DNA of 64,000 nucleotides from Myxococcales bacterium (lineage in GTDB: Bacteria; Myxococcota_A; Polyangia; Polyangiales; DASUME01), in the NCBI GenBank assembly GCA_047601445.1, contig JASGJH010000001.1:5568001-5632000 (forward strand), read 5' to 3'. The translations under genes and the position numbers were made by a program. The notes beneath the pieces are model-generated. The model ran no database searches, was not told the DNA's origin, and saw nothing but the letters and a program-made list of their open reading frames with translations. Each line of letters opens with the position of its first letter. The stretch's first letter is position 1. Of the stretch, positions 15,044 to 41,068 are shown in pieces.

Positions 15044-16093
15044 CTAAGGCGAGACCACCACGCGCAGCTCGCGAAAGCCCACGCCACCACGTGAGTCTCG
15101 CAACACCAGCCACAACTTGTGCTCACCCGCCTTGCTGGGCGCGGTCCACTCGTTGCTGGTGCTCTCGGCGCGCTCTTCCTCGGCCACACCGGTGCGCTCG
15201 TCCGCGTAGACGCCGGCCGTGGCGTACCAGGCGAGGCTCAGGCTCTCGTACCGCGACACCAGCGCGCCCGCCTGCACGTCGAGCCAGAGGTACTCCTCCT
15301 GCCCCGGGCAGCCGGGCGGGACTGGCTTCGCGCAATCGTCGGTGCAGCTGGCAGCGAGCTCGTGGATGCTGCAAATGCCATCGCCGCAGACGTCCTCTGC
15401 TTGGCTGGGGCAGTGTGCCCAGTGGGCGGCGAGCTCCAGCGTCTCGCCGGCTCTCACCTGAAGTACGTCTGCATCGCCCAACGAGGTCCGCTCGCCGCCT
15501 GCACGCTTGACGTCCACGTAGTCGACGCGCGGGTTCACGTTGCGACGGTAGCGCTGGTTAAACTCGCCCGATGTCTTCGGGTCCACGCCCGCCAGGCCGC
15601 AGTATAGGCGCTGCTCGTAGAGCACCGTCTTAGGTTGACCCTGATCGGGCACCACCCCCAGGATCACGGGCTGCTTGTAGCCGCCCGTGGCATCCGGATC
15701 TGCAGGTCGCCCGGGCGGGCTGTCACCCTCCGGCTTGGGGGGATTGGGACCAAACTGCGCGCAGGCCTGGGAGGGCATGGTGCCCTGCACCTCGAGCCCT
15801 TTGCCGATGCTCACGAGCTTGTCACCCGCGGCATCGAAGCACTCCCGACTGACCGGCCCAAGCTCGGCAGCGGGCTTGCGAGCTTCGCAGTGAAACCAGC
15901 TCAAGCGTCCGCCCGGCGTGCTGCCGTTCGACGTCACGAACAGGGACCGATAGGTCACCGCCTGCCCGGCGGCTGCCTCGGCGGGCTCCGCCTGGACCGC
16001 GAGCACGATGGGCCCCGTCACCGTGGCATCGTCGGTGTCGAGATCCGGGACGCAGCCCACGGCGAGGGCCGACAGCAGCACCGCTGCACGCAT
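15044..16093 (-). CDS. Cys-rich lipoprotein, partner of upstream TonB-dependent receptor
   Basis: MRAAVLLSALAVGC lipobox; VLAVQAEPAE; C-terminal LWLVLRDSRGG. Alternative start 16123. Confidence 0.85.
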   Translation of the reverse strand: MRAAVLLSALAVGCVPDLDTDDATVTGPIVLAVQAEPAEAAAGQAVTYRSLFVTSNGSTPGGRLSWFHCEARKPAAELGPVSRECFDAAGDKLVSIGKGLEVQGTMPSQACAQFGPNPPKPEGDSPPGRPADPDATGGYKQPVILGVVPDQGQPKTVLYEQRLYCGLAGVDPKTSGEFNQRYRRNVNPRVDYVDVKRAGGERTSLGDADVLQVRAGETLELAAHWAHCPSQAEDVCGDGICSIHELAASCTDDCAKPVPPGCPGQEEYLWLDVQAGALVSRYESLSLAWYATAGVYADERTGVAEEERAESTSNEWTAPSKAGEHKLWLVLRDSRGGVGFRELRVVVSP

Positions 16094-16110
16094 GGGTTGG
16101 CGCCGTCCGT

Positions 16111-18816
16111 TTAGAAAGTCCATTGCACACCTGCGACGGGAAGAATGGGCAAGCTCTGAATCTTGCCGCGACGCGTGAAATCGGGGCTGTACACGTACTC
16201 CTCGGTGTTCGCGCGGTTGGTGATGTTCTGAACCTCCAGATAGGCCTGTAGCTCGGAGGTCCCCAGCTTGAACGTTTGGCTGACGCGCACGTCGAGCTGC
16301 ATGAACATCGGGATGCGGATCCCATTGTGCTCGCCGAAGAAGGGCTGCTCTCGGTTGCGCAGAGCGTCGTAGTAGGTGCCGGTGACCTTCGTGCGCGGAT
16401 AGCCGCTGGCGACACGGAAGCGACCGCCGAGCTCGAAGCCCTTGAGCGGGGACCACACCAAGACGGTCGAGAGCACGTGGGTCTGGTCGTAGTCGAACAA
16501 GCGCCAGTCCGAGTTGTCGTCGTTCTTTCGCTCGCTGCGCATGATGGTGTAGGCGATCCAGCCGAAGAAGTGATCCGACATGTCCTTGCGGATCAGGGTC
16601 TGCAGACCCACCGTGCGCCCCTGCCCCGTGGGCAGGAGCGCCTGTGCCACGAGCGGCGAGGCCAGACCGTTGCGCATGGTGAGCTGGTCGAGGAAGGTGG
16701 CGAAACCGGTGAGCTCCACCGTGAGCTTCTCCAGAGGCTGCAGCGCGGCGCCAGCTACGAAGTGCCAGGCGCGCGAGGTCGGCAAGAGCGGGTTGCCGAA
16801 GGTGGACGAGAGATCGGCCGCGGCCGGCTGCTGATGATACAGACCGGCGGCCGTGTGCAGCGTGAGTCGCTCGAGCACGGCCCAGCGCAGCGCGAGGCGA
16901 GGCTCGGCCACGAAGTTCTGCTCGAACGCGCCCACCGGCGGGCTGTCGCCGATCACGGGCGTGCGCTTGCTGACGCTGCGGAAGTTCGGGTCGACGCGCA
17001 GGCCGGGGACGATGTGGAGTTTCTCTCCGAAGGGCGTGATGTCTGCCTCGGCGTAGGGCGCGATGCCCACGCGGGTGGTGGAGAAGTCATCGAAGCCGAT
17101 CTGATCGGGCGGCGGCTGTCCGAACACGCGAACGTCACCCTCACGAGGCGGCAAGCCGAGCGAACCGCGACGATCGATCTTGTAGTTGGCGACCTCTGCG
17201 TCGAGACCGCCCTCCAGACTGATCCAGGCGTTCAAGCGAATCGCGTGGCTCGCGCGCAGACCGACTACGTAGTCATCCGTCGACAACGACGTGACCGTGG
17301 CACCGTAGCTGCTCTTCTGGCTCTGGCTGCCGAAACCCACGTAAGGAGTGACCACCGTACGCGTACCGTTGCCGCGCTCGGCCACGTAGCGGGCGTACAG
17401 GCGATAAAAGGAGAGATCGCGCGCTTCGCGAGTGACCAACGACGGATCGGGGTTGGGCACGCCACGTGCGGTGTGATCGAGGCTCATCAGCCCTACCACC
17501 TCCACGCGCTGTCCATCGCCCAAGTCGCGAGCGATGCGGAGCTGGGCGTCGCGGTAGCGCGGAATCGGCACGAACTTGCCGACGTCGTCGTCGAGGCCCT
17601 TGGCGAGCTGATCGATCACGCTCACGCGGCCCGCAGCAGCCACGTCGGTCTGCTTGCCCAGGGAGGTGCTCATCATGGCCGAGGCGTCGAATACGTCGGC
17701 GGCCAAGAGCCCGTGCAGGCCCTGCTTGTCGGGGGTCTTGGTGTCGATGCGCACCAGACCGCCCAGGCCGCGACCATAGGCCGCGCCATAGCCACCCGGC
17801 ACCAGCTCGACCGAGCTGACCATGCTGGAGTGGACCGTCGAGCGCAGACCGCCCTCGTGGTAGAGGCGCGGAATGGGCACGCCGTCCACATAGGTGCGCG
17901 TGTCCTCGGGGCCTGCGCCCCACACCACCAGCTGACCCGAGCCCACGGCGGAGCGCGCCACGCCGGGCAGGTTCTCCACCACGCGCACCACGTCGCCTTG
18001 CGCGCCGGGAATGCTGCGGGCCTGCTCGGCGCTCACCTTGGTGGAAACCACCTCGCGTTTGAGCGCGGGAGGGGCCGTCACCAGGATCTCCATGTCGTCG
18101 CTCGGTCCCTGCTCGGCACCTGGCGGCGGCTGCAGCGCAACCTTGTAGGTCACGTCCAACTCTTCGCCCACCACCACCGTCTCCTCGGTCTGGAGTGGCG
18201 TGAGCCGCTCACCCGAGAGCGTGATCGGCAGCTTGCCTGGCGCGAGGTTTTCCAGGCGAAAGTGGCCCTTCTCGTCGGTGGTGACGCTCACGCCTCCGGG
18301 CAACTCCACCTTCACGTTCGGGAGCGGCTTCTTGGTGTCGGCATCGAGCACGGTGCCACTCAGCACACCGGTGGTCGGCACCACCTTCTCCTCACGCAGC
18401 GTGAACACATAGCGATACACGATGCGGATGGCCGCCGGCTTGCCGTCGATCTCCGCGGGCGAGAACTCGAAGGCCTGCACCGCCGCCAGCGCCGCGGCGT
18501 CGAAGGCCGCGCCGCCCGACTCCGTGACCTGCGCCTCGCCGACCTTGCCGAGCGCGTCGATCAAGATGGTGAGCGTCACGCCGACGTCGCCCGTGGGCTT
18601 GGGCTCCACCGTGGGATAGGGGGCTTCCACGAACTTCGTGAGCGCGGGAGGCTTGGTGAGCTTGGGGCCCTCCGGGGCCGGACCCGCCGTGCTCGGCGTG
18701 GACCCCTGCGCCGCCGCTTCGCTCGCGGTGCCCAGGCACAACGAGAGTAGGAGCAAGCTCAGGCGACGCAGCGACCTTGTTCGCGCGTGACTCGAATGAA
18801 AAAGAGTAAGACTCAT
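16111..18816 (-). CDS. TonB-dependent receptor with N-terminal TonB_C-like and carboxypeptidase-regulatory-like domains
   Basis: Signal peptide; YP...IDALGKV...FDAAALAAVQAFEFSPA (TonB_C); plug motif PGAQGDVVRVVENLPGV; beta-barrel with FDYDQTH and terminal F. ATG 18816 overlaps the tonB stop (ATGA). Confidence 0.92.
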   Translation of the reverse strand: MSLTLFHSSHARTRSLRRLSLLLLSLCLGTASEAAAQGSTPSTAGPAPEGPKLTKPPALTKFVEAPYPTVEPKPTGDVGVTLTILIDALGKVGEAQVTESGGAAFDAAALAAVQAFEFSPAEIDGKPAAIRIVYRYVFTLREEKVVPTTGVLSGTVLDADTKKPLPNVKVELPGGVSVTTDEKGHFRLENLAPGKLPITLSGERLTPLQTEETVVVGEELDVTYKVALQPPPGAEQGPSDDMEILVTAPPALKREVVSTKVSAEQARSIPGAQGDVVRVVENLPGVARSAVGSGQLVVWGAGPEDTRTYVDGVPIPRLYHEGGLRSTVHSSMVSSVELVPGGYGAAYGRGLGGLVRIDTKTPDKQGLHGLLAADVFDASAMMSTSLGKQTDVAAAGRVSVIDQLAKGLDDDVGKFVPIPRYRDAQLRIARDLGDGQRVEVVGLMSLDHTARGVPNPDPSLVTREARDLSFYRLYARYVAERGNGTRTVVTPYVGFGSQSQKSSYGATVTSLSTDDYVVGLRASHAIRLNAWISLEGGLDAEVANYKIDRRGSLGLPPREGDVRVFGQPPPDQIGFDDFSTTRVGIAPYAEADITPFGEKLHIVPGLRVDPNFRSVSKRTPVIGDSPPVGAFEQNFVAEPRLALRWAVLERLTLHTAAGLYHQQPAAADLSSTFGNPLLPTSRAWHFVAGAALQPLEKLTVELTGFATFLDQLTMRNGLASPLVAQALLPTGQGRTVGLQTLIRKDMSDHFFGWIAYTIMRSERKNDDNSDWRLFDYDQTHVLSTVLVWSPLKGFELGGRFRVASGYPRTKVTGTYYDALRNREQPFFGEHNGIRIPMFMQLDVRVSQTFKLGTSELQAYLEVQNITNRANTEEYVYSPDFTRRGKIQSLPILPVAGVQWTF

Positions 18817-19526
18817 AGCGTAAATCGGATGCTCACCACGAATGTCGATTCCACGGGCTTGCCGCACTGCTGCGCTGGCTCGAACGACGCGCCTTCCACG
18901 GCGCGCACGGCAGCTTCATCGAGTCCATGTCCCAGTCCTTCGAGCACCTTCACACTGCGGATCGCTCCGCTCGCGTCGACGGTGATCTCCACGCGCACCT
19001 TGCCCTCGATGCTGGCGGCACGCGCTTCCTCGGTGTATTCGGGCCGTCCCATCGAGAGCGGCTTCGGCTTCGTTGCGGGCTCCTCGCAGGTATCTTCCGC
19101 CACTTGCTTCTTGGCGGGTTCAACCAGACTCTTGGCCTGCGCCACGCGCTTCACGGGCTCCTTGGTTCCAGAGGTGCCCAATGAGTCTCCCACGGGCACG
19201 GCGACGCCACCGAGTCCCACACCGCCGGTCATGGCGATGCCGAACGTGGGCGCAGCGGCCGCCACGGGCGCGGGCGCGACCTCGGGCGGAGGCTCGGCAG
19301 ACTTGGCCTTGGGCGCGGCCTTCGCCTTCGGTTGGGCCACCGGTGGCGGTGGTGGAGGCGGTGGAGGAGGAGGCTCTTCCTTGGCCTTGGCCTTCTTGGG
19401 CGGCTGCACCACGGTGATGGCGATGCGCTCGGGCTCCTTGGTGGGCTCGATTTCGCGCACGCCCATGCCGAGCGTCGCATGCAACGCGAAGCTGACACCG
19501 TAGAGCACTGTCATGGAGGTACGCAT
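18813..19526 (-). CDS. tonB: Energy transducer TonB
   Basis: N-terminal anchor SFALH, Pro-rich linker, C-terminal YTEEARAASIEGKV...GLDEAAV...FEPA. Confidence 0.92.
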   Translation of the reverse strand: MRTSMTVLYGVSFALHATLGMGVREIEPTKEPERIAITVVQPPKKAKAKEEPPPPPPPPPPPVAQPKAKAAPKAKSAEPPPEVAPAPVAAAAPTFGIAMTGGVGLGGVAVPVGDSLGTSGTKEPVKRVAQAKSLVEPAKKQVAEDTCEEPATKPKPLSMGRPEYTEEARAASIEGKVRVEITVDASGAIRSVKVLEGLGHGLDEAAVRAVEGASFEPAQQCGKPVESTFVVSIRFTL

Positions 19527-19531
19527 GACGA

Positions 19532-19960
19532 TTACTGACCTTCGCGCTCCACCTGGACGGCGAACTTGGTGATGTTGTTGCTGCGCGCCAGGTCGAGCAC
19601 GTGCACCACGATGCCGTGCTGCGCGACCTTGTCTGCGCTCACGATCAGCGTGATGTCATCACCCTTCTTGCCTGCCGCCGCGAGCTTCTCCTTGAGTTGA
19701 GCCTCGGTGACGGGCTCCTCGTTGAAGAGCATCTCACCCTTGGGACCGATGGTAACCGCCGCCAGTGAGGCTGCACTGCCATCCGACGTGGCCGTATTCG
19801 GCAGATCGACCTTCATGCTCTGCGACACGATCCAGGTCGCCGAGACCATCAAGATCACCAGCAGCACCAGCACCACGTCCACCATCGGGGTCACGTTGAT
19901 GCCCACGATCATCCCGCCGCGTCCGCCGCGACCACCACCTGTACTCGTCGTTCCAGCCAT
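19532..19960 (-). CDS. exbD: Biopolymer transport protein ExbD/TolR
   Basis: INVTPMVDVVLVLLVILMV; ADK...HG.VV.VLD. Confidence 0.95.
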   Translation of the reverse strand: MAGTTSTGGGRGGRGGMIVGINVTPMVDVVLVLLVILMVSATWIVSQSMKVDLPNTATSDGSAASLAAVTIGPKGEMLFNEEPVTEAQLKEKLAAAGKKGDDITLIVSADKVAQHGIVVHVLDLARSNNITKFAVQVEREGQ

Positions 19961-19972
19961 GACGCGCCTCCT

Positions 19973-20692
19973 TCACTCGGCCGGGGCCAGAGCGCTCGTG
20001 CGCTCGGCGTCGGGAGATTCACTGTCGCTCGCGGACGCGAGCTGCGGCTCTTCGATATCCTTGGCCTCGGGGTGCGTGTGCAACCAGGCCGTCACCAGGC
20101 GCGCCAGCGACTGCGCGTGCCCCTCGATTTCGCCCGCCTTCTTTTGGACCACGTTGTAAGCGACCACCGCGGGGATGGCGACGAAGATACCCACGCCCGT
20201 GGCGATCAAGGCCTCTGCGATGCCGCCCATGACCTTGGCCATGCCCGCGCCCTGCGCGCTCGAGCCGAGGTGGCTGAAGGCCTCGATGACGCCGATGACG
20301 GTGCCAAACAACCCCACGAAAGGAGCGTTGTTGCCGAGCGTACCCAGCAGGTTCGTGCCGCGATCCAAATCCGTGCGAGCTCTTCCGAGCGCGCTCTCGA
20401 GCGCGTCGTTCACGGCCTCGGGTCCGCCCTTCTTCCACTCGAGCGCCTCGCGCAGGATGGACGCCTCCAACGACGGGCTCGCGTCGAGCGCGCGCTTGGC
20501 CGCGGCGTAGTCGTTGTTGCGCAGGGCCTTGCGAAGCGTCTCGTCGAGCGCCTTACCGGCGTTCTTGTTCTTGCGGAAGAACAGGAAGCGCTCGAGCATG
20601 GCGCCGATGGACACCACGCTGAGGAACAGGAGCAGGTACAGAACCCAGGTGGCTCCGAGCATCGCGATCTTGAGCAGGCTTTGGACGATCAT
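19973..20692 (-). CDS. exbB: MotA/TolQ/ExbB proton channel protein
   Basis: LGTLGNNAPFVGLFGTVIGVI...GIAEALIATGVGIFVAIPAV. Confidence 0.95.
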   Translation of the reverse strand: MIVQSLLKIAMLGATWVLYLLLFLSVVSIGAMLERFLFFRKNKNAGKALDETLRKALRNNDYAAAKRALDASPSLEASILREALEWKKGGPEAVNDALESALGRARTDLDRGTNLLGTLGNNAPFVGLFGTVIGVIEAFSHLGSSAQGAGMAKVMGGIAEALIATGVGIFVAIPAVVAYNVVQKKAGEIEGHAQSLARLVTAWLHTHPEAKDIEEPQLASASDSESPDAERTSALAPAE

Positions 20693-20751
20693 GGCATTAC
20701 CTCGACGATGAACTGGCTGTGCTGGCGGGGAGTCCCGCTCGCTTGCGGGAC

Positions 20752-21690
20752 TCAGGGAAACTTGATGGCAGTAAGGTAGAGAGGCTTGTTGTTGTCGGTC
20801 TCGATCTGCGCACGCACGAACTCACCGCCGAAGGTCTTGTCTTCCTTCAGTGAGAACGTGCCGTCGCCGTGGTCCTGACGGCGATAGATGGTGAGCTCGT
20901 AGCTCACGGCCGCCTGACCGCAGATATCGAACAGGTTGGCGTAGAAGTACCAGGTACCGGCGGGCGGCTGGTCGTACCACACGAAGGATTCGCTACGGTT
21001 GCCCGGGTCGACGCAAGCGGGGCTCGAGTCGCCGAGCAGCTCGGCCAGCACCTTCTTGTCTTGGAGCAGGGCAGCGTTCTTGTAGTCGTAGCGCACGCTG
21101 GCCGGAGACAGCACGCTCAGATCGATGTCCGCGTCGAAGTTCCAGCGCAGCACGGCCACGGCTGCGGGCGGCTGCAAGGTGGGATTGCAGCCGTTGCCGT
21201 TGTCGAAGACGTCCGATTGAACGCAGATGGTCTGCTTGGTCTGCTTGCCGGGCTTGCCGTGCTTGTCGAAACCGACGGCGATCACGTCGTGCGAGCCCGG
21301 CTCGAGATCGAAACTCAGGCCGATGGCGGCGCCCCAATTGAACACCCCGGGCATGAAGAGGTCCTCCGCGCCCAGATTGACCTGCCAGTAGCCCGTCCCC
21401 TCGCCGGCAATCCGGAAGCCAGCCGCGCTCGTGGCGCCATTGGCCGTGCCGACCAGCGCGAGGTTGACGGCACCCTGCTTGGTCGTCCCCGTGATGGAGA
21501 ACGAGACCTCCGGTGTTCCGCTGACCGTTGCGTCATCGGACTGGGCGCCCGGCAGCTTGCCCTTCTTGAACACGGCCGGTGCCGTGGCGGTGATGGGCTC
21601 TTCGACCCCGAGAGGCTGCTCCACGCTCTCGCATGCGGAGAGGATCAGACCCAAGGCCAGCGTGAGCTTGAGTGTACGGAGGCTCGACAT
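20752..21690 (-). CDS. Lipoprotein with YfaP-like C-terminal domain
   Basis: LSAC lipobox; LRWNFDADIDLSV...ESFVW...PPAGTW pattern; start abuts the porin stop. Confidence 0.75.
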   Translation of the reverse strand: MSSLRTLKLTLALGLILSACESVEQPLGVEEPITATAPAVFKKGKLPGAQSDDATVSGTPEVSFSITGTTKQGAVNLALVGTANGATSAAGFRIAGEGTGYWQVNLGAEDLFMPGVFNWGAAIGLSFDLEPGSHDVIAVGFDKHGKPGKQTKQTICVQSDVFDNGNGCNPTLQPPAAVAVLRWNFDADIDLSVLSPASVRYDYKNAALLQDKKVLAELLGDSSPACVDPGNRSESFVWYDQPPAGTWYFYANLFDICGQAAVSYELTIYRRQDHGDGTFSLKEDKTFGGEFVRAQIETDNNKPLYLTAIKFP

Positions 21691-23330
21691 CAGAACCGCC
21701 CCTGTGCGCGCAAGGTCCAGGCGTTGTTCGCGAGATCGGTGGGCACGCCGCGCTTGTCGCGCGCGAGGTTGTCGTTCACGAAGTCATACTGGAAGGTGAG
21801 TCGGGCGACGCCCGGCCAGCGCACGCCGATGATCGGCGACAGCGTCTTGATGCTCAGGTCGTGGTTGTAGACGGTGCCCTTGCGGGAATCCGTGAAGTCC
21901 GAGTCGGGATCGTAGACGTCGTAGCGCGCCCCGATGAAGGCGTACTCCGTGATCTCCTGAATGCCCGCCACGTACCAGCTCAGCTCACGGATGTCGCGCT
22001 TGCTGAAGGTGGGATCCGCCACGTAGAGCGCGCGGTCGAGGTTGCTCGCGAGCAGCACTTCGCCGTACACGCGTGTGTTGCCGGCCTTGGTGTCGAAGTC
22101 CACCGACAGGTCGGCGCCCGCTGCCCAGCGATCGAACGTCGCCGAAGGCGTGCGACCGACGGCAGCGCTTTGCTCGACCTCGCTGAGCGTGAACTTGCCG
22201 TCGTGGTCGCTGTCGTTCCAGCCGAGGACGCTCTTGGTGGCATTGGTGCCCGGGTGGAAGCCGGTGCCTGAGAGGAAGGAGACGCCGCCCGCGATGTGCA
22301 GCTTGTCCATTGGCTTGGTGTCGATGCCGACGCGGCCGAGGTAGTCGGGCTTGCTGGTGGGGTCGATGCCGCTCGGGCCGCCCGCGCGATCGTCGAGCGG
22401 AACGCCGTTCATCACGGCGAACTGCGCACGGAACACGCTGTACGCGCCCTCTAGCTTGGCGCCGGTGTCGACCGGACCAGGGAACAACGCCAGCGAGCCC
22501 GTGCTGCGCTCGAGGAACAGAATGTCGTCCTGGCCCTGCTGCAGCTCGAGTCCGAGCGGGATCTCGGTGAGACCCACCGTGAGCAGGAGGAGCGGGAGAC
22601 CGTCCGGATCGGAGCCGGGCAGCACACCCGAGATCGAGGCACGTCGAACGCTCATGGTGGGACCGCGCGTGTTGCTGCCGTCGACCTCGAAGTCGGTGCG
22701 GAAGTACTTCCAGCGACCGTTGACCCGCAAGCGACCGCGACGCACCGCGAAGCGATTTTGGTTGAGCGGCGAGCCACCCTGCTGGAGCTCGTCCTGGGAC
22801 AGCTCGTTGCGCCCGTACTGCACCTGGATGTAGCCCGACAGATGCACGCCGTACTTGGCGATGCGCGAGAGGATGTCCTCCTTCTTGCGCGCTTCGTCCG
22901 CCTCGGACTGCTGCTTCGCTTCGACAGCGGCCTTGCTCTGCGCCTGCGCCTCGGCGTCGGCCTTGTTCTGCGCTTCTGCCGCCGCCTGGGCCTGCGCCTG
23001 AGCCTGTGAGTCCGCGAGGCGCTTCTCGAGCGCCTGGAGCTGATTTCTCAGCGCGGTCACGTCCGCTTGCGATGCGGCTTCGACGGGCGTCGCCGGCGCG
23101 GGCGCGGCCGCTGCAGCAGCGGGCGCTGCAGCGGGTGCCGCGGGCTTCGCAGGTGGAGCAGCCGGCGTGGCTTCGACGCTGATCTCGACGTCGTCATCTG
23201 CTGGAGCCTGCGCATGCGCGCGCAGCGAGCCGAATCCAACGCCGAATCCAACCAACGCCAAACCGATCGGGAAGACACTCAGACGGGGGAGAGAAAACAT
23301 GGAGACTCTGCGTTTCATCTTTGTACGCAC
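21690..23330 (-). CDS. Outer-membrane porin (OprO/OprP-like) with N-terminal coiled coil
   Basis: Signal peptide, Ala/Gln coiled coil, LSGYIQVQY...FAVRRGRLR, IPLGLEL...FLERS, C-terminal AQGRF. Start could be 23318 or 23300. Confidence 0.82.
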   Translation of the reverse strand: MRTKMKRRVSMFSLPRLSVFPIGLALVGFGVGFGSLRAHAQAPADDDVEISVEATPAAPPAKPAAPAAAPAAAAAAPAPATPVEAASQADVTALRNQLQALEKRLADSQAQAQAQAAAEAQNKADAEAQAQSKAAVEAKQQSEADEARKKEDILSRIAKYGVHLSGYIQVQYGRNELSQDELQQGGSPLNQNRFAVRRGRLRVNGRWKYFRTDFEVDGSNTRGPTMSVRRASISGVLPGSDPDGLPLLLLTVGLTEIPLGLELQQGQDDILFLERSTGSLALFPGPVDTGAKLEGAYSVFRAQFAVMNGVPLDDRAGGPSGIDPTSKPDYLGRVGIDTKPMDKLHIAGGVSFLSGTGFHPGTNATKSVLGWNDSDHDGKFTLSEVEQSAAVGRTPSATFDRWAAGADLSVDFDTKAGNTRVYGEVLLASNLDRALYVADPTFSKRDIRELSWYVAGIQEITEYAFIGARYDVYDPDSDFTDSRKGTVYNHDLSIKTLSPIIGVRWPGVARLTFQYDFVNDNLARDKRGVPTDLANNAWTLRAQGRF

Positions 23331-23401
23331 TTACCGAAGAAAGGTTGATTGAACTCGTAGACTGCTATGCGTTGTCTGCTCGAACTACGCAAGCCACGAC
23401 T

Positions 23402-23438
23402 CGATGAAATATCGAGGCGTGGCCCGGGAATATCGCGG
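23402..23438. promoter_or_regulatory. Two degenerate CCGTGA-N4-TCACGG sites, 21 bp apart, upstream of the porin gene
   Basis: CGATGAAATATCGAGG (23402-23417) and CCCGGGAATATCGCGG (23423-23438), each 12/16 to CCGTGAAATATCACGG. Confidence 0.55.
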
Positions 23439-23451
23439 CTATTGGCGGCTA

Positions 23452-23784
23452 TTACAGCGCCGGCAACGACCCCGCTGGCAAGCGTGAAGCGTTGTCGAAC
23501 TTCACGCGTTGGATAGAAGACTTGAGTCCGCACTCGTTGTTGAGGAAGCCCTCACTCGTGGTCGGAGTCTGACAACCTTTCACTCCGCCGTCTGTTCCAG
23601 CGTCAGACGTGCTGCCACCGTCCACACCAGCATCGTTGTTGGCATCGCCATCGCCATCTCCAGGAGGTGGCGGAGGCTCTTCGGTGTCGTCGTTCTTGTC
23701 GCCACCGCAAGCAGCCGGAGCCAGCGCGAGCGCAGACAACAGAAGGAGCTGCCAAAACCGCATCGTAAGAGTACGCATGATCAC
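23452..23784 (-). CDS. Small lipoprotein
   Basis: PAAC lipobox, acidic DAG linker, two Cys, C-terminal FDNASRLP; overlaps the upstream stop. Exact Met uncertain. Confidence 0.8.
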   Translation of the reverse strand: MIMRTLTMRFWQLLLLSALALAPAACGGDKNDDTEEPPPPPGDGDGDANNDAGVDGGSTSDAGTDGGVKGCQTPTTSEGFLNNECGLKSSIQRVKFDNASRLPAGSLPAL

Positions 23785-25190
23785 TTCACCTCGCAGAAGC
23801 CGTAGCGGCAGTAGGGAGCCGTGGCCGGGCAGGTCGCATCGGCCGCCTCACCAGGAAGTTCATCGCCAGCCTGGTTCACGCAGGCTTGGCAGGAGTCGGA
23901 GTGCACACCGTTCTGCTTGTGATCCTCGAAGTAGCAGCCGCAGGAGACCTCGGGCTGGTAGCTCGCGAGCGGACCCACGTCACCGTCGCGCGTGACCTGC
24001 ATCGCGCAATCGGGGATGTTGCCGACGTCGATCTGAACGTCGAGGAAAGACTGGTTGTCGGGCAACTTGGTCTTGCCCGTGATGTACTCGACCCAACGCT
24101 TGGTGTTGGCGTCGACGATCTGACCGCTGGGACCGTCCAACTTCGCGTAGAAGTGGTGCGGGTTCCACAGGAAGTAGCGGCCCTGCCGCACGTTGATCTT
24201 GTCGAAGGAGGTGGTCGCGTCGGAGTCGGGCCAGTAAGCCCAGTTCTGACCCTTGGCCTGGAAGGCGAGACCCCTGACGTTTTCGCGCGCGATGTCGATG
24301 GTCTCCGTGCTCGCGAAGCCGAGCGAGTTCTCGGCGTTGCCGGCGCCCCCGGTGGCGGTCACGAACTTCACCATGTTGCCGTTGGTGGCGACGTCGTTGG
24401 GCCCCTTGGAGCCGTCGGCGGCGTAGGTGGGGTTCGGCGTACCGGTGCTGCCGTAGAGGGGATGCGTCAGCGGGATGCCCACGGCCTTGGCCAGGAGCAA
24501 GCCAGCCGCCGACGTGGTGCCGCGGCTACCGATGGCCGTGCCCACGGTCCACGGGGCGACCTGATAGGTCTCGGGGCCGAAGCCGTAGATGTAATAGGCT
24601 GCCTCGGCGCTGATCGCCTGCTGGGTCGAGTCCTTGTGGACGAACAGACTGAAGGCGCTGATCGGGCCAACGGTGTCGCTGATATCAGCCGGCAGTCCTG
24701 CCGCGTAGCCGTTGCAGGTGGTGGCCAGCTGGGCCATCGAGCCCCAGGTGGCGTACACGGGTGCGGCGTTCGCATCGAGCGTGCACTCCTGGCGCTTCAC
24801 GGAGCCGTCAGCTGCGTGGTACCAGTACTGAAGGCTGCCCGTGCTGAGCTTGGTGTGGGTCGCCGAGTCGAGCGAGTCGAGCGCCTTGCACGCGCCGTCC
24901 GACTTGTAGAAGACAATGAGCGGCTCGGAGCTCTTAAGAAGGTCGGCGGCCAAGCGGCCCACGAGCACGTTCGGCGCGCTGCCGCCACGACCCCAGATGC
25001 GGGGAGCGCTGGCAGCAATCTCGTCGGGAATGCCTGGGAGCGTTGCGGCTTGGCAATCGGGGGGGGGTGGAGTCTGCGCCTCAGCGGCGTCAGCCACCAA
25101 TAGGCCAGCACCCGTTAGAGCGCCGCCCAAAACCAGTGAGCGCCAGTCACGGCCCTCGCTGAACCTCAAGAATGAAAAGGACACGGTCAC
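23781..25190 (-). CDS. Secreted PstS-like / periplasmic-binding-fold protein with Cys-rich ends
   Basis: AGGAGG 8 nt before GTG 25190; signal peptide ending AEA-Q; IWGRGGSA, YKSDGAC, SRGTTSA and NVRQGRYFLW echo PstS-family motifs (GST, GSG, RxxxSG, G.YP); C-terminal CRYGFCE. The fold call is tentative. Confidence 0.65.
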   Translation of the reverse strand: MTVSFSFLRFSEGRDWRSLVLGGALTGAGLLVADAAEAQTPPPPDCQAATLPGIPDEIAASAPRIWGRGGSAPNVLVGRLAADLLKSSEPLIVFYKSDGACKALDSLDSATHTKLSTGSLQYWYHAADGSVKRQECTLDANAAPVYATWGSMAQLATTCNGYAAGLPADISDTVGPISAFSLFVHKDSTQQAISAEAAYYIYGFGPETYQVAPWTVGTAIGSRGTTSAAGLLLAKAVGIPLTHPLYGSTGTPNPTYAADGSKGPNDVATNGNMVKFVTATGGAGNAENSLGFASTETIDIARENVRGLAFQAKGQNWAYWPDSDATTSFDKINVRQGRYFLWNPHHFYAKLDGPSGQIVDANTKRWVEYITGKTKLPDNQSFLDVQIDVGNIPDCAMQVTRDGDVGPLASYQPEVSCGCYFEDHKQNGVHSDSCQACVNQAGDELPGEAADATCPATAPYCRYGFCEVK

Positions 25191-25252: not shown

Positions 25253-25268
25253 AGCGAGGTCCGTGCCA
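25253..25268 (-). promoter_or_regulatory. Sigma54 -24/-12 promoter for the PstS-like/porin/TonB operon
   Basis: Minus strand reads TGGCACGGACCTCGCT (GG-N10-GC with full TGGCAC), about 60 bp before the start codon. Confidence 0.75.
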
Positions 25269-25290: not shown

Positions 25291-25430
25291 CTGTGAAATC
25301 TTCCGTAACAAAGCGCGGGCCGTGATTTCTCCTGGGTACACCCCGTGAGGAGCCCGGATATTTGCAAGGTGGTCCGCTCCATTCATGGGTCGGCTTCTTC
25401 GCCGCGAGCCGTTCCCGTGATATTCCACGG
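25291..25430. promoter_or_regulatory. Cluster of CCGTGA-N4-TCACGG palindromic operator/UAS sites
   Basis: CCGTGATATTCCACGG (25415-25430, 15/16), CCGTGATTTCTCCTGG (25320-25335, 12/16), CTGTGAAATCTTCCGT (25291-25306, 11/16). Confidence 0.75.
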
Positions 25431-25436
25431 CGCTCG

Positions 25437-27269
25437 ATGTCGAAGTCCCCGTCGCCCCCTTCAGAAACGGCCTCCTTGATCCCGTCGCCGCTCGGCGAGG
25501 AGCGGACGCGTGGACGTGCTCAGGAGCCCCGGATCGAGCGGCTACTCCCGTTCGTGGGGACAGTCCGGAGCTACGCCGGCGAAAAGGCGAGACGCGATCT
25601 GATCGCGGGCCTCACGGTGGCTCTATTCGCCGTGCCTCAGGCCATGGCGTACGCGCTGATTGCCGGCTTTCCTCCGGCCTCTGGCATCGCCACCGCGGTG
25701 GCGGCCTCCATCCTCGGCGCGGCCTTCGGCAGCTCCGAGTTCCTGATCAACGGACCCACCAACGCCATCTCCGTGATGCTGGCCGCCAACGCGGCTCTGT
25801 TCGCCGCCCAGGGCGACGCCATCCGCGCCGTCGTATTGCTGACCTTCTTGATCGGAGCAGTGCAGCTCGGCGCTGGCCTCTTGAGGATCGGGACGTTCAC
25901 TCGCTTCGTGAGCGAGCCCGTACTCACCGGGTTCACCGCCGGCGCCGGCGTGTACATCGTGATCAACCAGCTGCCGGCCTTCTTGGGCATCAGCAAGTCC
26001 GCGATCGTCCGGGATCTGTGGGGCTTGACCCCACCCCACAGCGCGTTCTTCGACCTGCTGCTCCTCGGACGCTCCCTGAACAAAGTGCACTACGCCACGA
26101 CCGCGCTGGCCTTGTTGACGTTCGCCACCGTGCGCCTGCTGCAGTACTTCGAGCCGCGCATCGGACGTCGCTTGCCGGGGCCTTTCGTGGCCGTGGTGCT
26201 GACCACGCTGATCGTGTGGCTGCTCGGTCTCGACCATGACGGCGGCTTCGACCGTGTGAAGGTCGTGCGCGACATCGAGCCCCTCACGCGCCACGTGCCG
26301 ACGCTGGTCTGGCCGAAAATCGACTTCCCGACCGTGCGTTCCCTGGTGGGACCCGCCCTGGCGATCGGCCTGATGGGCTCCGTGGAGGCGATCGCCATCG
26401 GCAAGACTCTGGCCAACCGAGCGGGCCATCCCTTCGACGCGAGCAGACAGCTGCTGGGTGAGGCCTTCTGCAACCTCGGCGCGGCCTTCGTGGGAGGCTT
26501 TGCGTCCTCTGGCTCGTTCAGTCGTACCGCGGTGAACTACGAGGCGGGCGCCATGACCCGCGTCTCGTGCATTTTCTCGGGCGTCCTGGTGTTGGTGCTG
26601 GTGATCTTGTTCGCGCCGCAGGCCAACGTGATCCCGATCGCTGCCCTCGCGGGTACCCTGGTCCACATCGGCCTCAAGCTGGTGGACGTGGTTCGGCTCA
26701 AGCTCGTGTTCGGGACCACCGAGGGTGACCGCGTGGTGCTGCTCACCACGTTCCTGGGTGTGCTGTTTGCGGAGCACCTCGAGAACGCCCTGTTCGTGGG
26801 CATCGCGGTCTCCATTTACTACGCTCTGCGGCGCGCCGAGGGCTTCAAGCTGCGCGTGTTGCGGGAGGGCTCCGACGGCAGCCTGAGTGAGTTCGCGGAG
26901 GCGGACGCCGAAGAGCGCGTGATCGCCGTGCTCAACCTGCAGGGCGAGCTCTTCTTCGCGGCGGCCGAGGAGCTGCAGAACGAGCTCTTGCGCATGCTCG
27001 AGACGGGTCCGCGCGTGATCGTGCTGCGCATGCAGGAGGCTTACAACCTCGATGCCACCACGGCCCACGCCCTCGCCCTGGTGGCCGATCGGGCGCGCAA
27101 GCAGGGCGGTCGACTGATCCTGTGCGGCCTACGTCCGGGCATGTACGGCACCTTCGAACGCGCGGGCCTCGTCCCCGTCATCGGCGACGACGCCCTGTTC
27201 AAGGCCGAGCGCGAAATCCTCGCCTCCACCCGCCACGCCATGGAATATGCCCACAAGCTCGCACGCTAG
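25437..27269 (+). CDS. sulP: SulP family inorganic anion (sulfate) transporter with STAS domain
   Basis: DLIAGLTVALFAVPQAMAYA, INGPTNAIS, GSFSRTAVN; C-terminal GELFFAAA...LDAT STAS. Confidence 0.95.
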   Translation: MSKSPSPPSETASLIPSPLGEERTRGRAQEPRIERLLPFVGTVRSYAGEKARRDLIAGLTVALFAVPQAMAYALIAGFPPASGIATAVAASILGAAFGSSEFLINGPTNAISVMLAANAALFAAQGDAIRAVVLLTFLIGAVQLGAGLLRIGTFTRFVSEPVLTGFTAGAGVYIVINQLPAFLGISKSAIVRDLWGLTPPHSAFFDLLLLGRSLNKVHYATTALALLTFATVRLLQYFEPRIGRRLPGPFVAVVLTTLIVWLLGLDHDGGFDRVKVVRDIEPLTRHVPTLVWPKIDFPTVRSLVGPALAIGLMGSVEAIAIGKTLANRAGHPFDASRQLLGEAFCNLGAAFVGGFASSGSFSRTAVNYEAGAMTRVSCIFSGVLVLVLVILFAPQANVIPIAALAGTLVHIGLKLVDVVRLKLVFGTTEGDRVVLLTTFLGVLFAEHLENALFVGIAVSIYYALRRAEGFKLRVLREGSDGSLSEFAEADAEERVIAVLNLQGELFFAAAEELQNELLRMLETGPRVIVLRMQEAYNLDATTAHALALVADRARKQGGRLILCGLRPGMYGTFERAGLVPVIGDDALFKAEREILASTRHAMEYAHKLAR

Positions 27270-27274
27270 GCCCC

Positions 27275-28891
27275 TCACGCCTGCATGCGGCCGCGGAAGC
27301 GGTTCCACTCCACGCCCAGCTTCTTCATGCGGGAGCGCAGGGTGTGCGGGTTGATGTCGAGCAGGTCCGCCGCCCCGCCCTTGCCTTCGATGCGACCCTG
27401 GGTTTGTTCCAGAGCGCGCTCGATGTGCTTGGCCATGGCCTGATCCAGGGTGTCGAAGGCCTCGTTCACTGCCGAGGCAACCGGCACGTTCGCGACGAGT
27501 CCATTGCTCAAGCTGTGGATCGGAATGGCCGGCGCCAGTGCCACCGGCGAGGGGGGCGGCGTGCTCTGGCGCGGTGAGCCTCGCAAGCCGAGGGCCGCAG
27601 CCACGTTGAGCTTCTTGCCGCCACCGAGGATCGCCGCGCGCTCGATCACCGTGATGAACTCGCGCACGTTCCCGGGCCAGTCGTAGCCTATCAAGAGTTC
27701 CACATCGGCTTCGGTCGGCGCCAGTGGGGCGCCCCCCAGGCGCTTACCCGCCCGCCATGCGAAGTGCGCAGCCAGCGCGGGAATGTCGTTCAAGCGCTCC
27801 CGCAAGGGCGGCAGCACGATGGGAAACACACTCAAGCGATACCAGAGGTCCTCGCGGAACGTCCCCGCCGGGATCATGTCCTCCAGATTCCTGTGTGTGG
27901 CTGCCACCACGCGCACGTCCACGTGGATGGAGCGTGTGCCGCCCACGCGCTCGAACATGCGCTCCTGCAGCACGCGCAACAGACGCACCTGCGCATCGAG
28001 CGGCAGCTCACCCACCTCGTCGAGGAACAGCGTGCCGCCGTCGGCGCGCTCGAACCATCCCTTGCGCGTGCCTGAAGCACCCGTGAAGCTGCCGCGTTCG
28101 TGCCCGAACAGCTCCGAGTCCACGAGGCCCGGCGGAATCGCGCCGCAGTTCACGCACACGATGGGGCCCTTCGCACGCTCCGAGCGAGCATGGATGGCGC
28201 GGGCGACGACCTCTTTGCCAGTTCCGGTCTCCCCGAGCACCAACACGGGCACATCGGTGATGGCCACCTGCGCGATGCGCTCCGTAACCTCGCGCAGACC
28301 GCTGTCGCCGCCGACGATGGTCTCCACGATGTCCTGGCGCTCCAGGCGCGAACGCAGCGCCCGGTTGTCGGCCTCCACAGCCTCTCGCAGGCGAGCGAGC
28401 TCGTGGAAACGCCGATCGTTCTCGAGCGCCAAGCGGAAAGGCTCGAGCAGGCCCTGGGCCTTGCGCACGTGCACATCGTTGAAGCGCTCGTCCGCCACCA
28501 ACACCAGCACGCCCTGCGGGCCTTCTTCGTCGTTGAGGGGACCCACGATCAGATCGCCTCGCAGACCATTGGGCACGAGCGACGTCAGCAACGCGCTCGA
28601 GTGCGCCTGTCCGTGCAACGCACGGCCCTCGCGGCAGAAGGCGAGCACCGCCTCGAGCTGCGCATCGCTGTAGTCGTTGTGAGGGTGTTGCGGGAGCACC
28701 CGGGGATCACGAGCCTCCTCGGCCACGGTCTCCAGCTGCCGCCGACCCACGTCGAAGCGACGCACCAACACCGCGCCCAGCGGCAGCTCCTGTCGCAGGT
28801 GAGGAACCAGCTTCAGAAGGGCGCCGCCGATCTCGGGATGCCGGCAGATTTCACGCCATAGAGGTAAGGGAATGTCCACGCCATCCAGCAT
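27275..28891 (-). CDS. Sigma54-dependent enhancer-binding protein (FhlA-like: GAF-like sensor, AAA+, Fis HTH)
   Basis: [69 protein letters not shown]; no receiver domain. Confidence 0.95.
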
Positions 28892-29051: not shown

Positions 29052-29067
29052 TGGCTCGGTCTGTGCT
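29052..29067 (+). promoter_or_regulatory. Sigma54 -24/-12 promoter for porin-sbp-cysTWA
   Basis: TGGCTCGGTCTGTGCT, GG-N10-GC spacing, just upstream of the operon. Confidence 0.7.
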
Positions 29068-29095
29068 TTAGCGCGCACTCGTGAATACTTTCCCG

Positions 29096-30514
29096 ATGTT
29101 CTTTAGTAAATCACTCAAGTTCAGCTCTGTCCTCTCCTTTGCTTTCTTGTGTTTGGCCGCCCCCCTTCACGCCGAGGCCCAGGCCGCCCCGGCTAGCGCC
29201 GCGCCCGCACCTGAGGTGACCGAGGCCGCCCCTGCGCCCGTAGCGGCCCCTGCTCCGGGAGAGCCCGCCCTGCTCGCGGCTCCCGCTGCGCCCGCGGCTG
29301 CCCCCGAGAGCGCTCCTTCTAAGGATGCGCTCCTGGAGAAGGCCAAGTTGGAAGGCCCCACGGTGGTGGTGCAGCCCGGCCGAGGGCTCACGGTTACGAG
29401 CCTCGACGGCAAGAACTCGATCCAGATCCGCTCGCGCGTCCAGATCCGCGAGACCTATACCCACGACGAGCACGCGGATCCTCAGTACCAAAACACCAGC
29501 GAGCTGCAGATCCGCACGCTGCGCCTGTTCGTCACGGGTAGCGTCCTCGACAAGGACCTCAAGTACTTCATCCAGCTGGCCTTCGGTGCGAACGACTACG
29601 AGACGGGCTCGGCTTCCCCGATCTTCGACGCCTTCGTCGAGTACACGAAGCTGCGCGACGCCAACATCCGCCTCGGTCAATACTTCGTGCCCTTCGACCG
29701 CGCGCGGACCATCCGCGAGTTCGCGCTGCACTTCGTGGACCGCCAGCAGGTCGTACGCGAGCTCAACCTGGATCGCGATGTGGGCCTGATGTTCTCGTCG
29801 ATCGATCTCTTCGGCTGGGGCTCCCGCCTCGGTTACCACGTGTTCGTGGGCAGCGGCGACGGTCGCAACCGTGTGCTCGACAACAAGAACCCCTTCGGGT
29901 CGCAGCGCGCCAGCGTGCTCTCGGTGGGTCGCCTCATCTTCAAGCCCTTCGGGAACTTCGACGACTACGACCAGGAGGGCGACCTCTCGCGCAGCCCGAA
30001 GCTCAGGCTCGCGATTGCCGGAGCCGTTGGTTACAACTATCACACCGACCGCAGCAACAGCACCTTCGGCACCATCTACACCGCCGGCACGTTCAACTAC
30101 ACGCACACCGCTGCGGACATGGTGCTCAAGTGGAACGGCTTCTCGCTGATGACCGAGTACCTGCGGCGCGAGGCCAACAGGAACAAGGACACCCGCTTCG
30201 TCGATGGCAAGGAGACCACCCAGTACTCGCGCTCTGGCTGGGGCTACTTCGTGCAGGCCGGACAGATGCTCACGGACCGCCTGGAGGTGACCGCACGCTG
30301 GGACGACCTCTATGCCGACGTTGGCACGGATCCTGAAATGCGGCGCCTGGCTCGGCAGTTCGGCCGGCAGGTCGGCGGCGGCCTGAACTACTACATCAAC
30401 GGGCACTTCTTCAAGCTGCAGGCCGACTACTTCTGCATCCTCAGCCGGGCCGCTCCCGACAACGACCTCGAGCCGCGCCACGTCGTCCGCGCGCAGCTCG
30501 ACGCAATGTTCTGA
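29096..30514 (+). CDS. OprO/OprP family anion-selective porin, first gene of the sulfate operon
   Basis: Signal peptide; [35 protein letters not shown], terminal F. Alternative GTG start 29081. Confidence 0.9.
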
Positions 30515-30540
30515 ACCCTCTCACGGAAAAGAATCGGATC

Positions 30541-31632
30541 ATGACTGCCAAGATCGTATCGTTCTCGTCGCTCGCGCTCTTCACCTCGTTGCTGGTGAGC
30601 CTGACTGCCTGCGGCGGAAACAAGGAAGAAGCCAAACCCGCGGAGGGTTCCGCCCCGGCCCTCGAGGCCAAGCCCGAGAAGCCGAGCAGCGTGGAGCTGC
30701 TCAACGTGAGCTACGACCCCACGCGGGAGCTCTACGAAGAATTCAACAAGTCGTTTGCCGATAGCTGGAAGCAGAAGAGCGGACAGACCGTGACCGTGCG
30801 CCAGTCCCACGGCGGCAGCGGCAAGCAGGCGCGCGCCGTGATCGACGGCCTGGAGGCGGACGTGGTCACGCTTGCGCTGGCCTATGATATCGACGCGCTC
30901 TACGAGCAGGCCAAGCTCATTCCCCAGAACTGGCAGACCCGACTGGCCGACAAGAGCTCGCCTTATACGTCGACCATCGTGTTCGTGGTGCGCAAGGGGA
31001 ACCCCAAGGGCATCAAGGACTGGAGCGACCTGGTGAAGAAGGGCGTCGAAGTCATCACGCCCAACCCCAAGACCTCGGGCGGCGCGCGTTGGACCTACCT
31101 CGGGGCCTGGGGCTACTCGCTCAAGCAGCCCGGTGGCAGCGACACCACGGCCAAGGACTTCCTCAAGAAGCTCTACGCCAACGTGAAGGTACTCGACTCG
31201 GGCGCACGTGGCTCGACCACCACCTTCGTTCAGAACGGCATCGGTGACGTGCTGCTCTCCTGGGAGAACGAGGCGCAGCTGATCCTCAAGGAGTCCGGCG
31301 CGGACAAGTACGAAGTCATCACGCCATCGCTGAGCATCCTGGCCGAGCCTCCGGTAACCGTGGTCGACAAGAACGTGGACAAGCACGGCACACGAGAGGT
31401 TGCCACGGCCTACCTGCAGCATCTCTACACCGACGCGGGCCAGGAGCTCGCGGCCAAGCACCACTATCGCCCGCGCAACGCCGCGGTGGCCGCCAAGTAC
31501 GAGCAGGACTTCCCCAAGCTCCAGCTGTTCACGGTGGATGAGCTGTTCGGTGGCTGGCAGAACGCACAAAAGACCCACTTCGCGGACAACGGAACCTTCG
31601 ACCAGATCTACGTGCCCGGCGGTGGCGGGTGA
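30541..31632 (+). CDS. sbp: Sulfate ABC transporter substrate-binding protein (lipoprotein)
   Basis: [51 protein letters not shown] lipobox. Confidence 0.97.
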
Positions 31633-40846: not shown

Positions 40847-41068
40847 GTGCTTGCCCTCGCGCGAGCTCGCGCGACCCCACTCCGAACATCCCATGTTTGG
40901 AATTGTCCGTTGGCCCGAGATGGGGAAGCAATAGTTTGCTCGTGGGAGCGGCGACGGCCTGCGTGAGCGCCACCGTCAACCGTGGGAGCGGCCACGCACA
41001 CCGTCGCCGTCGCCGTCAAAGTCCACGACCAGGCCCGCGACCAAGTCGAGGTCGCGGAACCCCGCCCA

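Follow-up and report, generated by a model that had tools for sequence, protein, structure and literature searches.

Single parts of the nine-gene operon treated here are known from several described systems. The operon lies on the minus strand at positions 15044-25190 of a 64,000-nucleotide stretch of a Myxococcales genome (the window) and encodes, in gene order, a PstS-fold binding protein, a small lipoprotein, a porin, a beta-rich lipoprotein, ExbB, ExbD, TonB, a TonB-dependent transporter (TBDT) and a last lipoprotein. By fold, the nearest described proteins are those of the PstS/PBP_like_2 group (PF12849). The fold is the same (Z 25), and the pocket motifs of the phosphate-type relatives of the window protein all align with Streptococcus pneumoniae PstS1. 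In contrast to PstS, the window protein contains 12 conserved cysteines and an extra cysteine-rich C-terminal domain, and no cognate PstCAB is encoded in its operon; its clade lacks the pocket aspartate, one serine and the threonine, and is linked to a TBDT, a porin and a putative lipoprotein tether. The SusCD and PusCD systems of Bacteroidetes also combine a TBDT that carries a carboxypeptidase-like N-terminal domain with lipoprotein partners, and PusCD complexes are described as induced by phosphate depletion, with genes beside phosphatases (PMC8115612). Here, however, the binder has the fold of an ATP-binding cassette (ABC) type binding protein, and there are a separate lipoprotein tether, a dedicated porin, a dedicated Ton motor and sulfur- and molybdenum-linked variants. 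Neither of the two larger lipoproteins nor their relatives gave a Pfam match to the SusD family, and the profile of the last lipoprotein found no match in the PDB.

Soluble binders which deliver a scarce ion to an outer-membrane transporter are described for TseM-MnoT, TseZ-HmuR and ModA-IcmP, the last of which delivers molybdate, IcmP being described as a metalloproteinase outer-membrane protein (PMC8602904). HasA-HasR-HasB is a similar binder-receptor pair with a dedicated TonB (PMC11658791). Unlike what is proposed for the window protein, these secreted binders are released by the type VI or other secretion systems and are not tethered by a product of the same operon, nor are they accompanied by a porin and three lipoproteins. 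SftP from the ats-sft cluster of Pseudomonas putida S-313 is a TBDT tied to sulfate ester acquisition and can, by its description, be likened to the window TBDT; a PstS-fold partner, a tether and a porin are absent from what that source says of it (PMC7711191). The anion-type porin fold is shared with OprP and OprO. Surface PstS/DING proteins of Pseudomonas are found on the outer surface under phosphate limitation, depend on the Hxc type II system and act in adhesion (PMC2242829), but the surface PstS of P. aeruginosa has no TBDT partner. The myxobacterial Oar is a TBDT clustered with a Ton system and has the same N-terminal Pfam domain as the window TBDT. It exceeds, however, the usual length of a TBDT by 300-400 amino acids and secretes a protease, and partners of the present kind are not reported in its cluster. 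The same absence applies to the cluster of MxcH, which like the window TBDT has an N-terminal TonB_C domain fused to the transporter. The window TBDT itself is not an MxcH siderophore receptor (NF038079 score 70 bits, cut-off 925). In the open-access literature (supplements excluded) no description of the nine-gene cluster was found. This agrees with the original prediction, made from the DNA letters, which knew of no characterised system of this composition; subscription papers or proteomics tables may still mention it.

The locus represents a real, widespread and apparently undescribed envelope system, a binding-protein-assisted TonB uptake route with a testable switch between phosphorus, sulfur and molybdenum. 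We think the chances somewhat better than even that the operon is a high-affinity outer-membrane uptake machine for tetrahedral oxyanions whose binding protein captures the anion at the cell surface. That the window copy serves the outer-membrane acquisition of a sulfur oxyanion can be stated with good confidence, and sulfate, thiosulfate or an organic sulfate or sulfonate are its likely substrates. One of the two options of the original prediction, capture and import of an oxyanion-containing substrate at the surface, is thereby narrowed to sulfur and is supported by fold, pocket residues, neighbouring genes and promoter motifs. We infer nutrient-linked regulation, tethering and ligand class from these features, and only weakly the surface location of the binding protein and its hand-over to the TBDT. 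The genes are conserved together, the first protein has a PstS-like fold and no characterised siderophore or phosphate system was matched, all in line with the prediction.

The nine open reading frames are co-oriented and follow each other in the order first described. The binding protein gene (23781..25190) encodes 469 amino acids with 12 cysteines, a signal peptide without lipobox and a pocket of the sulfur-linked type; an AGGAGG at 25204-25199 backs its GTG start at 25190. It is followed by the genes for the small lipoprotein (23452..23778; lipobox, low-complexity linker and a conserved C-terminal motif of about 44 residues), the 16-stranded porin with a long periplasmic N-terminal extension (21690..23330; OprP/OprO-like by TM-score), the beta-rich lipoprotein (20752..21690), an ExbB/TolQ-family proton channel (19973..20692; PF01618, E 7e-33), ExbD/TolR (19532..19960; PF02472, E 1.5e-28), TonB (18813..19526; PF03544, E 2e-19), the TBDT with N-terminal TonB_C and carboxypeptidase-like domains (16111..18816; PF07715 plug, PF00593 barrel) and a cysteine-rich lipoprotein of a myxobacterial family found after TBDT genes (15044..16123). 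The three lipoproteins contain 3, 5 and 11 cysteines. In gene order the junctions are TGATCATG, TGATG, gaps of 59, 12 and 5 nucleotides, an ATGA overlap and a 13-nucleotide overlap, and the single longer gap, 121 nucleotides, lies ahead of the porin gene. The TBDT likely starts at the ATG that overlaps the tonB stop. Coordinates and junctions thus bear out the co-oriented genes with overlapping or abutting ends that had been noticed, and the matches to PF07715, PF00593, PF03544, PF01618 and PF02472, all above cut-off, establish the full Ton motor and the TBDT. The binding protein, the porin and the three lipoproteins gave no Pfam or NCBIfam match above curated cut-offs. Within the nine genes there is neither an ABC permease nor PstCAB; pstC, pstB and phoU lie elsewhere in the genome, near 8.92 Mb. 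Neither a sigma-70 promoter nor a terminator stood out from chance level at the locus, and there was no plasmid match and no listed sequencing run for it. A Tol-Pal or gliding motor is rejected, as TonB_C and a TBDT are present and TolB and Pal are absent from the cluster.

For the comparison of loci, 141 rows of binding proteins were kept, of which 91 are of the operon type, 32 are linked to kinases and 18 are unassigned. They derive from 100 regions of up to 20 kb, hand-picked for long flanks and family spread among the top-listed matches (the best 150 of 298 from a profile search of the class), and from 47 further loci of the genome collection; fragments below 330 amino acids (250 in the second set) and duplicates above 95% identity were dropped, and genes in the fetched loci were called with a codon model. 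With a profile built from 113 homologues, matches were obtained in 170 of the 401 genomes from the class and in 43 of 301 in a phylum-wide sample, where just 4 of the matches listed fell outside the class. The family comprises 630 clusters at 50% identity (E below 1e-30), mostly from uncultured myxobacterial genomes, and its named homologues are Myxococcota, mainly Polyangiales and relatives. In 47 of the 77 operon loci long enough to judge, the order porin, YfaP-like protein, exbB, exbD, tonB, TBDT, lipoprotein is kept; 23 lack the three motor genes only, and 7 show other variants. A small lipoprotein gene comes after the binding protein gene in most operon loci. The conservation of neighbourhood that had been proposed as a check is therefore found in 47 plus 23 of 77 loci. 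Since the order is conserved across the class and a second copy exists in the same genome, a chance juxtaposition of the nine genes is rejected.

The model of the binding protein (pLDDT 95) is closest to phosphate-binding proteins, which make up all of the top 38 structural matches (4ecf: Z 25.2, root-mean-square deviation 2.4, 254 aligned residues). ModA (Z 15.0) and sulfate-binding proteins (Z 13.7-14.2) score far lower, and the suggested comparison with PstS, Sbp and ModA thus decides for the PstS-like fold originally read from the sequence. Residues 386-438 form an extra cysteine-rich part beyond the PstS-fold matches. An identity as Sbp/CysP or ModA is rejected by the lower Z scores and the lack of an NCBIfam match; true Sbp and ModA are encoded by separate neighbouring genes. 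PF12849 is matched by 20 of the 113 homologues, and the profile search of solved structures made with one phosphate-type protein gave no PDB match.

Asp56 of PstS is the group which rejects fully ionised anions. The phosphate ligands of E. coli PstS are Thr10, Phe11, Ser38, Asp56, Arg135, Ser139, Gly140 and Thr141, and sulfate is not adsorbed (PMC6549937). At the sites of all these ligands but Phe11 the window protein has Ser40, Ala69, Ala122, Arg192, Ser196, Ala197 and Ala198 (P0001 numbering), as judged by aligning its motifs with those of S. pneumoniae PstS1 and by the numbering of the E. coli protein. The ligand set is complete in the phosphate-type relatives, which keep every motif of PstS1 (GSTA, GSG, GNSDVF, RAAGSGS), and incomplete in the window protein (GGSA, GAC, GSMA, RGTTSAA). 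The pocket type of the window protein (GGSA, GAC, M-[AG], RxxxS[AF][AV]) keeps the arginine and two serines and has lost the aspartate, one serine and the threonine. A third, molybdenum-linked type shows GDTQ, GSC, S-[IA] and RxxxK[GS]T. The midpoint-rooted tree indicates that the phosphate type is paraphyletic, and the sulfur-linked and molybdenum-linked types each form a single derived clade (support 0.999 and 1.0), the latter taking in one phosphate-type row. A phosphate-binding-type protein appears to have been retuned by lineage for phosphorus, sulfur or molybdenum. Pocket residues and gene context together reject an ordinary Pst system.

The pocket types go along with different neighbouring genes. 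For the first 100 loci, 347 of the 394 listed nearby proteins and 58 family representatives were scanned against Pfam and 62 against NCBIfam; the second locus set was labelled only by BLAST to markers from the first. The 49 phosphate-type operon rows, among which L085 is counted although it is a kinase-type fusion, lie near phosphorus markers in 27 cases, sulfur markers in 1, molybdenum markers in 0 and arsenic-resistance genes in 4. The numbers for the 24 rows of the window's type are 11 with sulfur, 0 with phosphorus and 4 with molybdenum markers and 10 with none, and for the 17 rows of the third type 11 with molybdenum, 1 with phosphorus and 0 with sulfur markers. As sulfur markers we counted SulP, Sbp-CysTW, SsuD-like monooxygenases, CysK-CysE, a family 2A encapsulin with cysteine desulfurase and an arylsulfotransferase. 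As these markers make up at least six mutually unrelated gene sets, they speak against the plain inheritance of a single neighbourhood. SulP or Sbp-CysTW adjoins the window copy and the loci closest to it (L095, L096, L097).

In the window, a SulP-family sulfate permease gene (25362..27269, plus strand; PF00916, E 7e-77; TIGR00815 below cut-off) is divergent from the operon, and SulP holds the equivalent position at L095 and L096. Then follow a sigma-54-dependent activator gene (27275..28891, minus strand) and on the plus strand (29081..34392) a second porin gene (29081-30514) and Sbp-CysT-CysW-CysA (30541-34392). Sbp, CysT and CysW are above the NCBIfam cut-offs and CysA is above that of TIGR00968; the second porin belongs to a family with a Porin_O_P match. 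The statement that an inner-membrane transporter is missing therefore holds inside the nine genes but not for their surroundings, where SulP and a full sulfate ABC transporter adjoin, and the porin-Sbp-CysTWA genes or SulP likely supply the inner-membrane step. The N-terminal domain of the activator, present as a single copy in the genome, is 74% and 41% identical to activators beside the sulfur-type loci L097 and L020. Its approximately 185 N-terminal residues have no Pfam match and recur only beside sulfur-type loci, which makes them a candidate sensor of sulfur status.

A sigma-54 promoter-like box, TGGCACGGACCTCGCT (25253..25268, minus strand), lies 62 nucleotides upstream of the binding protein gene, and a second one, TGGCTCGGTCTGTGCT (29052..29067, plus strand), upstream of the porin-Sbp-CysTWA genes. 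Both promoters also contain a candidate activator site, GTGATTTCTCCTGG (25322..25335, plus strand) and the near-identical GTGATATTTCCTGG (28919-28932). The pattern, which was fitted after the fact, has 5 matches in the genome and stands upstream of a sigma-54-like box at just these two promoters; the genome-wide scan with it picked out no other sulfur genes. The activator is likely the regulator of both operons. Strong sigma-54 boxes precede 7 of 24 operons of the window's type and none of the 48 phosphate-type and 17 molybdenum-type ones. Pho-box-like repeats, defined as tandem GT[CA]A[CT] with 11-nucleotide spacing, precede 35 of the 48 phosphate-type operons (14% in shuffles), 4 of the 24 operons with the window's pocket type (11% in shuffles) and 3 of 27 kinase-linked phosphate-type genes.

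A second, six-gene copy without Ton motor is encoded in the same genome (G000:C1:5845563-5852250; binding protein gene at G000:C1:5850979-5852250), divergent from an XRE/PBP_like regulator and modABC. One genome thus contains one sulfur-linked operon and one operon divergent from modABC. The locus of this molybdenum-linked paralogue is L158 (G000:C1:5845563-5855706). None of the 17 molybdenum-type operons carries its own Ton motor. Both adjoining ABC systems encode their own binding proteins, and the cysteine-rich PstS-fold protein is therefore an extra binding protein.

From these data the following working of the window system may be proposed. Under sulfur shortage the sigma-54 activator would turn on the nine-gene operon together with the porin-Sbp-CysTWA operon, the sigma-54-like boxes of both being seen in the DNA. 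The PstS-fold protein, for which the fold is modelled and the tether deduced from gene fusions, would be exported by its signal peptide, form six disulfides and be anchored to the outer membrane through the small lipoprotein and its long flexible linker. It would close on the anion by Ser40, Arg192, Ser196 and backbone amides, the residues being present in the sequence. With the losses at Ala122 (the aspartate of PstS), Ala69 (serine) and Ala198 (threonine), the pocket would come to prefer a sulfur anion, fully ionised or organically substituted, over protonated phosphate. In what is the weakest step, the loaded protein may bind to TBDT loops peculiar to the operon, the two larger lipoproteins would serve as lid or scaffold, and the plug would then be opened by ExbB-ExbD-TonB. 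The porin would offer a passive route at higher concentration, and Sbp-CysTWA or SulP, whose genes are seen, would take sulfate through the inner membrane. As to the ligand, the adjoining SulP and CysTWA of the window copy hint at sulfate or thiosulfate; the more apolar pocket and the SsuD-like monooxygenase and arylsulfotransferase neighbours hint at organic sulfur. The ancestor was likely a Pho-regulated phosphate system from which the sulfur- and molybdenum-linked clades would have arisen by pocket change with the barrels kept.

The tether role is likely because two kinds of fusion join the motif of the small lipoprotein to the binding protein. This motif, C..P.T....LN.C......DN...LP....LP.L (44 residues), follows the lipobox and a disordered linker; 22 of the 32 kinase-linked relatives have it fused to the N-terminus of the binding protein, and the operon relatives L059 and L062, which are lipoproteins themselves, have it at the C-terminus. 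On this sequence evidence the small lipoprotein is the likely membrane tether of the binding protein. The model of the porin (pLDDT 91) is a 16-stranded barrel and finds 16-stranded porins in Foldseek, and a second outer-membrane barrel, as suspected from the sequence, is thus confirmed. By TMq, OprP (2o4v) leads the listed matches (0.62), but by E-value it comes fifth in a field of general porins. The porin does not match PF07396; it contains an FxERS loop and Arg-rich motifs, which presumably resemble those of OprP/OprO. A conserved DxNxDG loop motif in its family (window 21690-23330) weakly matches dockerin/EF-hand-like calcium-binding sequences, and L018 has a distant relative of the window porin ahead of pstSCAB-phoU. 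The name YfaP-like for the product of 20752..21690, which within this genome is found only in the two operons, is no more than a lead: its Atlas neighbours include DUF2135 clusters at 0.88-0.89, and there is no Pfam match, including PF09906. Among solved structures, profile searches with the porin, the YfaP-like protein and the last lipoprotein yielded no useful match. The last lipoprotein is likely a lid or accessory of the TBDT; as a weaker relative also follows a non-operon TBDT (G000:C1:3458372-3459244), it is probably a general TBDT accessory.

Two segments of the TBDT, RxGSxxxPxREGDxxVFGQPP and SxRxPxxGxxP (at 310-330 and 376-390), are common to all pocket types and are missing or degenerate in all three non-operon paralogues of this genome that were examined. 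Only 10 of 662 TBDT positions are specific for a pocket type, and over the same 51 loci the mean column identity is 50% for the TBDT and 28% for the binding protein. The segments are constant across pocket types, and therefore something common to all three types should be recognised there, for which the binding protein or a lipoprotein is the simplest candidate. A bolder and tentative version of the surface model, to which we give clearly less than an even chance, sees here a cartridge-type importer: a constant chassis of TBDT, porin and lipoproteins would read the surface of the lipid-tethered, disulfide-armoured PstS-fold protein and not the nutrient, and a few pocket substitutions would switch the machine between phosphate, sulfur anions and molybdate. 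L012 and L026, which each carry two different cartridges on one chassis, would fit this idea. In both loci (L012:11837-14389, L026:10595-13003) tandem binding-protein genes with different pockets share a single porin-TBDT set beside a molybdenum-type regulator.

Several points weigh against uptake of a sulfur oxyanion by surface capture. Since small anions normally cross porins, it is not evident why a TBDT should be required. The TBDT segments are taken for extracellular loops because they are insertions in the barrel. The sulfur-linked and molybdenum-linked types are one clade each, so that the counts of neighbours are not independent and Fisher values overstate the association, and the marker list was compiled after the annotations had been seen. 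Ten of the 24 sulfur-type rows lack a strict marker in the fetched flank and four are near molybdenum genes (L012 twice, L013, L026). The phosphate-type operon L099 lies beside SulP and a sulfatase, and the phosphate-type L032, L045 and L053 lie beside a pyridoxal phosphate enzyme with D-cysteate sulfo-lyase once as best match. A TauD-like gene in L011 and L020, both of which have other sulfur markers, has the phosphonate dioxygenase TmpA as its best match, below cut-off. The PhoB-like calls remain below the cut-off of TIGR02154 (164-265 versus 296 bits), and if PhoB/PhoR-like genes are set aside, 11 of the 49 phosphate-type rows retain a phosphorus marker. Molybdenum-type promoters, too, show Pho-like repeats in 6 of 17 cases (shuffles 10%). 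A sigma-54 box with one mismatch is expected 2.8 times by chance in the window, and the relaxed activator motif is hardly enriched across genomes (5/24 versus 4/49) and weakly conserved elsewhere.

Besides surface capture, the explanation that survives best, although we consider it unlikely, is that the tethered PstS-fold protein is a periplasmic sink below porin and TBDT. It would catch sulfate that is either freed from an imported organosulfur compound or enters via the porin, and hand it to the inner-membrane transporters. The evidence from neighbourhood, pocket and promoter fits this equally well, and proteins of the PstS fold normally reside in the periplasm, which is also the side that most lipoproteins face. 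However, the adjoining ABC systems already own binding proteins, the operon-specific TBDT insertions common to all pocket types need a common partner, and a protein with six disulfides on a long flexible tether would suit the cell surface of myxobacteria, as with CglB and TraA. That the TBDT hardly varies with pocket type would again suit a sink, with a carrier of something besides the bare anion, and the P. putida TBDT SftP serves sulfate esters (PMC7711191).

The second option of the original prediction, a Ton-powered export or display in which the TBDT secretes the cysteine-rich binding protein as Oar does PopC, gained no positive evidence and is in our view distinctly improbable. Oar and its Ton system are needed for PopC secretion and Oar shares the carboxypeptidase-like N-terminal domain, but the same domain is found in importers such as SusC, and sequence features that separate exporters from importers are, according to the same source, not known (PMC6434023). 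The constant TBDT could be reading a protein cargo, and the OprP-like porin would suffice for entry of the anion. A 45-kDa protein with 12 conserved cysteines, however, would have to thread unfolded through a barrel of 35-40 Å (barrel size from PMC6434023), and the kinase-linked relatives have the same cysteine pattern without an operon TBDT in the fetched flanks. The option is somewhat weakened because 22 of 32 of these relatives are lipoprotein fusions with no such TBDT nearby.

It is very unlikely that the window copy serves molybdate or tungstate, or fully ionised dianions generally, with a loose sulfur link. A pocket without the aspartate would accept sulfate, molybdate and tungstate alike, and the four rows of the window's type noted above adjoin modABC or an XRE-PBP_like regulator. 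This genome, however, has a separate molybdenum-linked operon beside modABC, the window copy and L095, L096 and L097 sit by SulP or Sbp-CysTW, and the window promoter shares two motifs with that of Sbp-CysTWA. Least probable is a sensing device whose binding protein reports external anion levels across the envelope. Regulators flank many operons, and of the 141 family rows 32 are lipoproteins beside a Ser/Thr kinase or TPR gene, the third copy of this genome among them. The operon form, however, includes porin, TBDT and motor but no conserved anti-sigma, kinase or STN signalling domain, and the regulators at its flanks differ between pocket types, as they should if they control uptake.

If the cartridge-type importer holds, an ABC-type binding protein would have been repurposed as a cell-surface TBDT receptor, and the family would provide a natural series from a phosphate pocket to a sulfate or molybdate pocket. 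Little is known of TonB-dependent uptake of plain oxyanions; neither "sulfate" nor "molybd" occurs in the text of a 2024 review of TBDT substrates (PMC11658791). The mostly uncultured myxobacterial hosts and the few matches in other classes may explain why the family was overlooked. Should the ligand predictions hold, natural rewiring of PstS selectivity could be followed in three soluble proteins with different predicted ligands, two of them from one genome, which might also yield disulfide-stabilised binders for sulfate, phosphate and molybdate.

The kinase-linked subfamily consists of lipoproteins with a phosphate-type pocket and the fused tether motif, next to a Ser/Thr kinase and a TPR gene. 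Examples are the third binding protein gene of this genome, beside a Ser/Thr kinase (G000:C1:3818032-3822570, L159), and L046, L047, L055, L067, L100 and L131. This subfamily may represent a phosphate sensor feeding a kinase. In the subclade L143, L147, L149, L151 and L153-L157 the pocket arginine is replaced by tyrosine and the final threonine by Met or Leu with the aspartate kept, and metallophosphatases are found near two of its members. L143 has tandem operons, a six-gene one with an unusual pocket and a nine-gene one of the phosphate type, with a PhoB-like gene between them. Genes for arsM, arsJ with GAPDH, an arsC-like protein and an aquaglyceroporin lie beside the phosphate-type operons L038, L106, L121 and L152, as expected if the system admits arsenate. 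The TauD-family gene (L011:8647-9723, L020:1699-2769), which lies within sulfur-type operons or immediately behind them, may encode an enzyme for an organosulfur substrate. The window also contains another TonB_C-fused TBDT gene without the operon-specific segments, followed by a lipoprotein gene (42221-46407; G000:C1:5610221-5614407), and at 37352-40894 a gene for a cysteine-rich predicted lipoprotein of 1180 amino acids with repeat-like segments.

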